This document shows, in pieces, positions 1 through 36,661 of a stretch of 36,661 bases of DNA. The position numbers and the translations under genes are program-made. Every line of letters starts with the position of its first letter. Position 1 is the stretch's first letter. The notes under the pieces were generated by a model that did not search any database, had not been told where the DNA came from, and saw nothing but the letters and a program-made list of their open reading frames with translations. Source of the stretch: Escherichia phage HK75. The DNA is taken from the sequence record HM173637; one strand, 5' to 3'.

Positions 1-49
1 GTTTGAATTTAACGCTAACCCGATTTTTTTAGTTTTAAGGTGTTGACAT

Positions 50-35840: not shown

Positions 35841-35977
35841 CTTAACTGATATCCCTTTTAACGGATAAACGGAGCCAACAATGGCAGAGATTATTCTCAT
35901 GACTGAAGAACAGAAATTCCAGTTAGAGATTTACAAACTGGTCATGAACCAGAACGCCGCCGTGCATGGAGACTGGC

Positions 35978-36319
35978 ATGAACAAAGAGCCCCGCGTATA
36001 TGGCAGCCGATGGGATAAGGCCCGTCTGCGTTTTCTCCAGCAGCACCCACTGTGTGTGATGTGCGAGCAGCAGGGGCGCATAACACCAGCAACGGTGGTC
36101 GACCATATCGTGCCCCACAAACTGAAAGATGCGCTTAAGTCAGGTAACCCTCTGGCCATATCGAAAGCACAGCTCCTGTTCTGGAGTAAAGAGAACTGGC
36201 AGCCACTGTGCAAAGCGCATCATGACTCAACGAAACAGAGAATGGAGAAGAGCGGCGCGGTAATCGGTTGTGATGCCAACGGCTACCCGCTCGATCCTGC
36301 GTCTCACTGGAGCACGTAA
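35978..36319 (+). CDS. HNH endonuclease (terminase-associated type)
   Basis: 113 aa from ATG 35978 (GGAG RBS); CxxC, DHIVPH and CKAHH HNH motifs; sits just upstream of the cos/terminase region in genome order. Confidence 0.75.
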   Translation: MNKEPRVYGSRWDKARLRFLQQHPLCVMCEQQGRITPATVVDHIVPHKLKDALKSGNPLAISKAQLLFWSKENWQPLCKAHHDSTKQRMEKSGAVIGCDANGYPLDPASHWST

Positions 36320-36522
36320 TGAAAGACCTCATCATTGAATACCGAGACGGTAAGTTTGTTCAGCTGGCGATTGATGGCGTGGAGATGAAGCACGTAACAT
36401 CTATCCAGTTCTCCCACACCGCAGGCGAGGACGTACCGACATTGACCGTGTCAGGACATGTGTGGTCCGAGTATGGGGAAGGCGATCACAAACTCGAACA
36501 GGTAGACAAACATTCGGCATAG
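36319..36522 (+). CDS. Hypothetical small protein
   Basis: 67-aa ORF coupled (ATGA overlap) to the HNH gene. Confidence 0.35.
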   Translation: MKDLIIEYRDGKFVQLAIDGVEMKHVTSIQFSHTAGEDVPTLTVSGHVWSEYGEGDHKLEQVDKHSA

Positions 36523-36606
36523 CGCGGCGGCGGCAAGTCGATTATCTATCATGTGAAATCATTTCAAATGCAACGATATCAAATGAGAATGAATCGCATT
36601 CAGGGC

Positions 36607-36619
36607 GGGGGGGGGGGGG
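36607..36619. repeat. Homopolymeric G13 tract in the putative cos region
   Basis: 13 consecutive G between the last ORF and the window end; flanked by GCGGCGGCGG (36523-36535) and its inverted copy CCGCCGCC (36651-36658). Confidence 0.6.
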
Positions 36620-36661
36620 ATCAAATCTTCAAAATCTTTGCCCCAAATGACCGCCGCCAAA

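Follow-up and report, generated by a model that had tools for sequence, protein, structure and literature searches.

The DNA analysed here, referred to as the window, is a stretch of 36,661 nt, and the features located near its two ends are listed in Table 1. At the right end lies an HNH endonuclease gene, which aligned with gp74 of HK97 and with the annotated HNH endonucleases of its relatives, and it is followed by a small companion open reading frame (ORF) for which no Pfam match was found. The companion ORF was missing from the Sodalis and Xenorhabdus relatives; accordingly, it is not tied to the G-rich box described below. The terminase genes terS and terL lie at the left end. The segment from the stop codon of the companion ORF (36522) to the ATG of terS (50) was non-coding, as a previous reading made from the sequence only (hereafter, the sequence-only reading) had described it. 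The gene order HNH-cos-terS of an HK97-type cos site was found in the window.

Table 1 Features at the right and left ends of the window. Positions relative to the cut are counted from the junction between -1 (36661) and +1 (1).
Feature	Window position	Relative to cut	Strand	Remarks
HNH endonuclease gene, HK97 gp74 homologue	35966-36319		+	Pfam HNH PF01844, E = 1.3e-5
67-aa companion ORF, function unassigned	36319-36522		+	From the ORF list; "hypothetical" in the annotation of relatives
Left arm of inverted repeat, GGCGGCGG	36526-36533			Judged a chance match
Upstream part of the profile	before 36610	upstream of about -52		No conservation
G13 homopolymer	36607-36619	-55 to -43		Direct reading
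G box, leftmost conserved cos element	36612-36620	-50 to -42		G frequency 0.73-0.97, 0.50-0.53 at -45/-44
AAAWCTYCA motif, directly 3' of the G box	36623-36631			AAA (36623-36625, -39 to -37) in 97-100%
TYCA	36628-36631	-34 to -31		Conserved in the 30-sequence profile
C box, CCC	36641-36643	-21 to -19		C frequency 0.77-0.80
ACCG	36650-36653	-12 to -9		Straddles the inferred bottom-strand nick 36651/36652; frequency 0.90-1.00
10-nt 3' cohesive end, CGCCGCCAAA	36652-36661		+	Top-strand nick after 36661; inferred from identity with HK97
Invariant 20-mer, TAACGCTAACCCGATTTTTT	10-29			Includes the published minimal TerS site +15 to +29
terS, small terminase, 161 aa	50-535		+	TerS homologues carry PF26841 Hendrixvirinae_terminase_S
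terL, large terminase, 504 aa	542-2056		+	Pfam TerL_ATPase and TerL_nuclease

The last 762 nt of the window showed 97-99% identity to HK97-like phages (Hendrixvirinae; 97.9-98.4% to HK97 and HK022), and the alignment reached the final base. This base was paired with the final base of HK97 (39732) and of HK022 (40751), and base 1 of the window corresponded to base 1 of both phages. Furthermore, no difference from HK97 was seen in positions 1-697 (100% identity), a stretch that contains the TerS site at +15 to +29. The coincidence of both ends and the complete identity of positions 1-697 indicate that the window represents an entire HK97-like genome, whose linear form starts and ends precisely at the HK97/HK022 cos cut. 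The segment is thus almost certainly the cos site of an HK97-type phage, and a cos site of this kind is already known and well studied in HK97. The sequence-only reading had expected a cos region between the HNH gene with its companion ORF and terS, continuing into positions 1-49; this expectation was borne out, since the ends match those of HK97 and HK022 and the TerS site is intact. No record identical to the window was found in the phage collection or among 5,426 complete E. coli genomes, of which only 12 contained a cos of the HK97 type, and independent sequencing of the exact G13 allele was likewise not found in the phage collection and the complete E. coli genomes.

In HK97, the cut is made between -1 and +1 and leaves ends with 10-nt 3' overhangs (PMC11331095, PMC9410871), the minimal binding site of TerS lies at +15 to +29 downstream of the cut (PMC11331095), and gp74, the HNH protein, stimulates cos cleavage, as shown together with TerL and TerS (PMC9410871). 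All of these published sequence elements were unchanged in the window, which shares with HK97 and HK022 the locus, the termini, the cohesive-end sequence, the HNH-cos-terS order, and positions 1-697. The G box does not appear in the published description of the HK97 cos, which deals with the TerS site, the cut site, and the overhang. The difference from HK97 lies in the run of G, with 9 residues in HK97 and 13 in the window. The A that precedes the run in HK97 is a G in the window and also in HK022. In addition, the window has T at 36635, where HK97, HK022, and nearly all other close relatives have C (AAAATCTTTG vs AAAACCTTTG). This change is probably neutral, to judge from the variability of the position across the wider family.

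The positions of the two nicks were deduced from the termini of the deposited records. The letters ...AAATGAC/CGCCGCCAAA/GTTTGAA were the same in HK97, HK022, and the window. In the HK140 record (JQ086370.1), GTTTGAA... on the left and ...AAATGAC on the right were joined to non-phage sequence, and exactly CGCCGCCAAA was missing. This record begins with 44 non-phage nt, CCTATCCCCTGTGTGCCTTGAGAGACGCCGACTACTACGTCTCT, whose reverse complement forms its last 44 nt. The terminal sequence resembles a 454 adaptor, and the 44-nt ends look like a sequencing adaptor left on polished virion ends. The records of HK633 and AsXd-1 also stopped at ...ATGAC without the 10 nt. Records that end at ...GAC in this manner are as expected if end-polishing removed a 10-nt 3' overhang, and these termini accordingly place the cohesive end and both nicks at the positions given in Table 1. 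The HK97 overhang is described in PMC9410871 as a 10-nt 3' overhang in the legend of Figure 1 and as a 12-nt 3' overhang in the Discussion; the record termini examined fit 10 nt rather than 12 nt. The bottom-strand nick had invariant AC/CG flanks, whereas the bases at the top-strand nick (36660-2) were poorly conserved across the family, a pattern which suggests that sequence may determine where one nick falls and distance where the other does. In the record of LMessi (PP925823.1), the cos junction (L008, about 985-1010) reads AAATG-CGCGTTAAAATCAAACTTTGGCGGCG-ATTTTAACGC, in which a reverse complement of the cohesive end and of ~16 nt from the beginning of the left end precedes a direct copy of that end; the arrangement probably reflects misassembly at the cos ends. 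A loose likeness of the minus strand to the lambda cohesive end had also been pointed out. It amounted to 8 of 12 bases (with GGCGGCG shared) and was not upheld, since the lambda-type end is a 12-nt 5' overhang (GGGCGGCGACCT) and the window has a 10-nt 3' end, with the match on the opposite strand; a lambda-type cohesive end was rejected.

Direct reading confirmed the run of 13 consecutive G that had drawn attention to this segment. It was the sole run of at least 8 G or C in the 36.7-kb window, where ~0.0006 such runs are expected by chance. A G run was found at the same place in all 14 annotated relatives, 6-11 residues long and with nearly invariant surroundings. When a flank-anchored pattern without bias on tract length was used, 79 further homologues were obtained from IMG/VR, and a pattern anchored in the core only gave 17 more. 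Among the flank-anchored matches in genome contigs, 31 of 32 were discarded as apparent chance matches in unrelated bacteria, judging from organism names only. The pooled set comprised ~113 loci (about 99 distinct sequences), one interrupted satellite tract being left out. The G tract was found at all of these loci and was never lost in a phage, where the shortest run was 6. Five loci carried 6 residues, 28 carried 7, 47 carried 8 (the mode), 22 carried 9, six carried 10, and four carried 11; the window was the single locus with 13, the longest run in the set, and no other exceeded 11. Among loci with one and the same flank haplotype, runs of 7, 8, 9, and 11 occurred. The length of the tract thus turns over far more rapidly than the neighbouring sequence, which is the behaviour expected of slippage. 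Three phages had been sequenced twice (2012 and 2025), and the run length was the same both times (11/11, 9/9, and 8/8), so that the deposited tract lengths in the HK97-like family are reproducible. The sequence-only reading had left open whether the tract was a real structural feature or an assembly artefact at the genome termini. The presence of a homologous tract in every relative supports the former, and the latter is contradicted both by this and by the location of the tract, 42 bp inside the end.

Subsequently, we consider the more distant relatives. The TerS-based search for related loci gave only relatives that were at least 91% identical, and the distant ones were reached via homologous proteins and the contigs encoding them. 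Six relatives with TerS identities of 60-81% were obtained from Providencia, Xenorhabdus, Sodalis, and uncultured sources. Their DNA upstream of terS was largely unalignable with the window. What persisted was the 20-mer with the TerS site, which was unchanged in relatives down to 60% TerS identity, GACC at the nick (TACC in the Providencia relative), and a G-rich box. The boxes of these relatives (GGGGGAGGGCGGG, GGGAGGGGGGGG, and GGGGTAGG) had their 3' edge 27-29 bp upstream of GACC. Contigs of IMG/VR and metagenomes were also scanned with the 20-mer alone, and the 126 distinct cos sequences found were reduced to 30 non-redundant ones, from which a profile was built by ungapped alignment anchored at the TerS site (Table 1). 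The positions between the conserved blocks and around the top-strand nick, including -30 to -24 and -8 to +1, were near-random in the 30 sequences, showing that the sequences have diverged far enough for positions without constraint to be erased. The G box, the AAA, the C box, and ACCG were all in register. Across genera, the G box has retained its composition, and its spacing from both the nick and the TerS site is exactly preserved; ~32 bp, or about three helical turns, separate it from the nearest nick downstream. Interruptions of the box such as GGGGGAGGG and GGGGTAGG are tolerated, so any recognition would be loose or shape-based. Although this evidence is comparative and the sequences share descent, it is likely that the G box is under functional constraint as part of cos.

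On comparison with these boxes, G13 is read as the homopolymer form of the G-rich box, an unusually long allele expanded by slippage. The G9 of HK97 spans -51 to -43, and the four extra G in the window extend to the distal (5') side, where nothing is conserved; hence they are expected to be neutral. The difference between 13 G and the 9 G of HK97 is most likely neutral slippage into unconstrained DNA, and the window needs no special explanation. As G13 is a homopolymer, its exact length is to be treated as needing read support. Long homopolymers are error-prone on several sequencing platforms, and 13 was the single longest run among ~113 loci, with the rest at 11 or less. Thus, 13 might be a sequencing or assembly error for a real length of about 9-11. 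We consider such an error unlikely, although it deserves some weight: the three related phages gave identical lengths in independent sequencing about 13 years apart, the tract is not terminal, lengths vary freely in one flank haplotype so that 13 is plausible by slippage, and the A-to-G change, by which the run gains one residue, is also present in HK022. An error of this kind would concern the length only and is compatible with the explanation preferred below.

A different question is whether the tract has any function. It could be a slippage-prone spacer without function that persists by common descent only, and two observations are in keeping with this: its length is unconstrained between 6 and 13, and the published model of HK97 packaging works without it. 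However, the box is 73-97% G and in register while -30 to -24, -8 to +1, and the region upstream of -52 are near-random. The box also survives in genera with unalignable flanks, and it never falls below 6 residues in phages although homopolymers lose units easily. Furthermore, a satellite retains the box at the very edge of its captured module, as described below. We therefore regard the functionless spacer as improbable.

Among the 5,426 complete E. coli genomes, three chromosomes matched the junction core only, namely ZF34 (NZ_CP047461, 3981427-3981511), ZF31 (NZ_CP047455, 3980750-3980834), and CUWW06 (NZ_CP182139; L134, 9001-9085). In ZF34 and CUWW06, the cos match was located in an intergenic gap of an island of roughly 10 kb, which in ZF34 lies beside tRNA-Thr. 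Both islands encode an integrase, an HTH regulator, an Icd-like protein, a P4-family primase, and SSB; the match in ZF31 was nearly identical to that in ZF34, and the island content was read in ZF34 and CUWW06. Similarity to the phages extended from GGCA and G7 (GGGGTGG in CUWW06) to about +36, with unrelated DNA on both sides. As delimited by this similarity, the portable cos module has the G box as its left edge. Since ZF34, ZF31, and CUWW06 share flanks, the satellite evidence represents one acquisition. A second satellite lineage was not found, and a scan of IMG/VR for the satellite variant of the TerS site was negative. One candidate for a second satellite, L249 (IMGVR_UViG_2870897478_000005), was rejected as a mosaic or rearranged prophage. 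In its positions 1-700, a divergent cos module (G box GAGGAGGGTGGAG) adjoins a packaging gene of the P22 gp3 type, which is encoded on the opposite strand and is followed by genes for a PAAR-domain protein and for the tail; the contig ends 46 nt past the TerS site.

The ZF34 and CUWW06 islands look like phage satellites that HK97-like helpers would package. In combining satellite genes with a helper-type cos, they resemble the known cos-carrying satellites, that is, the E. coli PICIs/EcCIs with a lambda-type cos, P4 with the P2 cos, and SaPIbov5 with HNH-dependent cos phages. They differ in that the cos of ZF34, ZF31, and CUWW06 is of the HK97 type, whereas the described E. coli PICIs redirect the TerS of lambda/80, and HK97 was reported to be insensitive to these PICIs (PMC6739421).

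The explanation that best accommodates these observations, and which we hold with moderate confidence, is that the segment is an HK97-type cos in which G13 is a slippage-expanded G box and a putative cis-acting packaging subsite. In this mechanism, TerS would clamp +15 to +29, and TerL and gp74 would make the staggered cuts that give the 10-nt 3' end; these steps were shown for HK97 and are assumed here by identity. The G box would act as a cis-acting cos subsite that is engaged by TerL/gp74 or by the motor-portal channel. The box lies upstream of the nicks, on the DNA expected to enter the capsid last, and the motor-portal channel should hold the G-box DNA when TerS locks on +15 to +29. From the spacing in base pairs, we estimate that, with the motor stalled by TerS, the box would lie some 45-55 bp towards the capsid, either inside TerL or a little past it and close to the portal.

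The box might instead act after packaging, in the retention or release of the right end through contacts with portal, head-completion, or tail proteins. The last roughly 50 bp of this end go in last and come out first, the fixed distance of the box to the right end (33-41 bp from the duplex end) fits this role and a cutting role equally, and a satellite in helper virions would need the box too. Nevertheless, sequence-specific retention of an end is not known to occur in the HK97-like family. The register of the box is also locked to the TerS site, which belongs to the other end of the molecule after cleavage, and this points to a role before or during cutting. A role after packaging is accordingly less likely than one in cutting, because the register is locked across the cut, and we rate it as quite improbable.

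We also considered DNA secondary structure as the functional unit, either a stem of GGCGGCGG and CCGCCGCC round the G tract or a G-quadruplex. The sequence-only reading had described an 8-bp inverted repeat flanking the tract. The two arms, GGCGGCGG (36526-36533) and CCGCCGCC (36651-36658), are indeed exact complements; the part of the claim that did not hold was their flanking, structural role. A distance of 117 nt separates the arms, with the G tract off-centre between them, 73 nt from the left arm and 31 nt from the right one, which overlaps the 10-nt cohesive end. An exact inverted repeat of at least 8 nt occurred in 15% of dinucleotide-preserving shuffles of 36520-36661 (142 nt). The strand folded no better than its shuffles (z = -1.18), and the GGCGGCGG/CCGCCGCC stem was not used in the predicted fold. 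Furthermore, the left arm was missing in five relatives (LMessi, ENT39118, Fostie, LAU1, and AsXd-1). The repeat was thus rejected as a structural element, being at chance level with its left arm unconserved. As for the quadruplex, GGGC and G13 could in principle give four blocks of G3, but most relatives have G7-G9 or interrupted runs such as GGGGTAGG, with too few G for four tracts. A role of secondary structure is therefore very improbable. Apart from these arms, a near-perfect palindrome, CATGTGAAAT C ATTTCAAATG (core TGAAAT-C-ATTTCA), was observed at 36550-36570; it is kept in the relatives of the E. coli clade and absent from the satellite, and it is not in register with the cut because the length of the G tract varies. 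The hexamer CAAATG was observed at 36569, 36580, and 36644 (CAAATC at 36622), with spacings of 11, 42, and 22 bp.

That the tract is a phase-variation switch, turning a gene on or off by frameshift or promoter spacing as the sequence-only reading had allowed, is hardly credible: the tract length is polymorphic among close relatives (7-11 in one flank haplotype) and short ORFs are annotated across it in some records, but no ORF or promoter spacer depends on it, since the lengths of 7, 8, 9, 10, and 11 cover all three frames with no conserved ORF, the small ORFs annotated there are placed differently and differ in length from one record to the next, the last gene stops upstream of the tract and the ATG of terS follows 92 bp downstream of it, the sole annotated promoter-like site (on the minus strand at the 36550-36570 palindrome in the mEp234 and HK106 records) lies upstream on the other strand and does not include the tract, and the satellite retains the box without a phage gene on either side. 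The homopolymeric contingency tracts of bacterial pathogens are similar in that a poly-G length differs between near-identical genomes; in contrast to them, the tract in the window is uncoupled to any gene or promoter, and its variation is bounded below and lies on the unconserved side.

Returning to the G box as a subsite of cos, the closest parallel is the cosQ of lambda, a conserved 7-bp element located upstream of cosN and indispensable both to termination and to nicking of the bottom strand (PMC4669245, PMC4856287). Both elements are short and lie upstream of the nick site, on the last-packaged side and outside the TerS-binding side, and both are preserved among relatives in which parts of the cohesive end differ. 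When a short conserved element upstream of the nick and apart from the TerS side was looked for in the profile, -50 to -42 was found. They differ in that cosQ is a fixed 7-bp site, whereas the box here is G-rich and variable in length, and the likeness is one of analogy only. The two systems also differ in the polarity of the overhang, which is opposite, and in the HNH partner, which is required in HK97. The lambda and HK97 terminases show little sequence similarity (PMC9410871), so homology of the G box to cosQ is not expected. By analogy, the G box would help the machinery to recognise and cut the downstream cos when packaging ends. A specifically cosQ-like role in termination is possible but doubtful. 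The further proposal that the G box is a third, hitherto unrecognised subsite of the HK97-type cos and the functional counterpart of cosQ, a G·C block abutting an A-tract that would be read mainly by shape and rigidity and be needed for efficient and accurate cutting when packaging ends, may be right, and we put it forward tentatively.

The published work on HK97 locates TerS binding downstream of the cut only, and its model of termination needs no upstream element. The mapping of TerS used fragments such as -20 to +80 (PMC11331095), and the cleavage work used the full -312 to +472 segment (PMC9410871); the upstream side was therefore apparently not probed separately. In the literature searched, no paper linking HK97 with a poly-G tract was found, although an earlier mention is possible. 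A literature search for the cohesive-end sequence gave unrelated primers only, and PMC10810279, a paper on the lambda terminase, contains no HK97 DNA positions. The G box is a conserved and apparently uncharacterised element at the upstream edge of the HK97-type cos.

HK97 is one of the main models for packaging in cos phages, for which structures of TerS-DNA and of TerL and an in vitro packaging and cleavage assay exist. A box held at a fixed position, ~32 bp before the nearest nick, would supply a missing piece of the termination model, and it would be testable in the existing assays. If the proposed role is true, the G box would provide the first point of comparison with the lambda cosQ in an unrelated, HNH-dependent terminase system, and the satellites, which have only the box-to-+36 stretch, would delimit the minimal portable cos of the HK97-like group.
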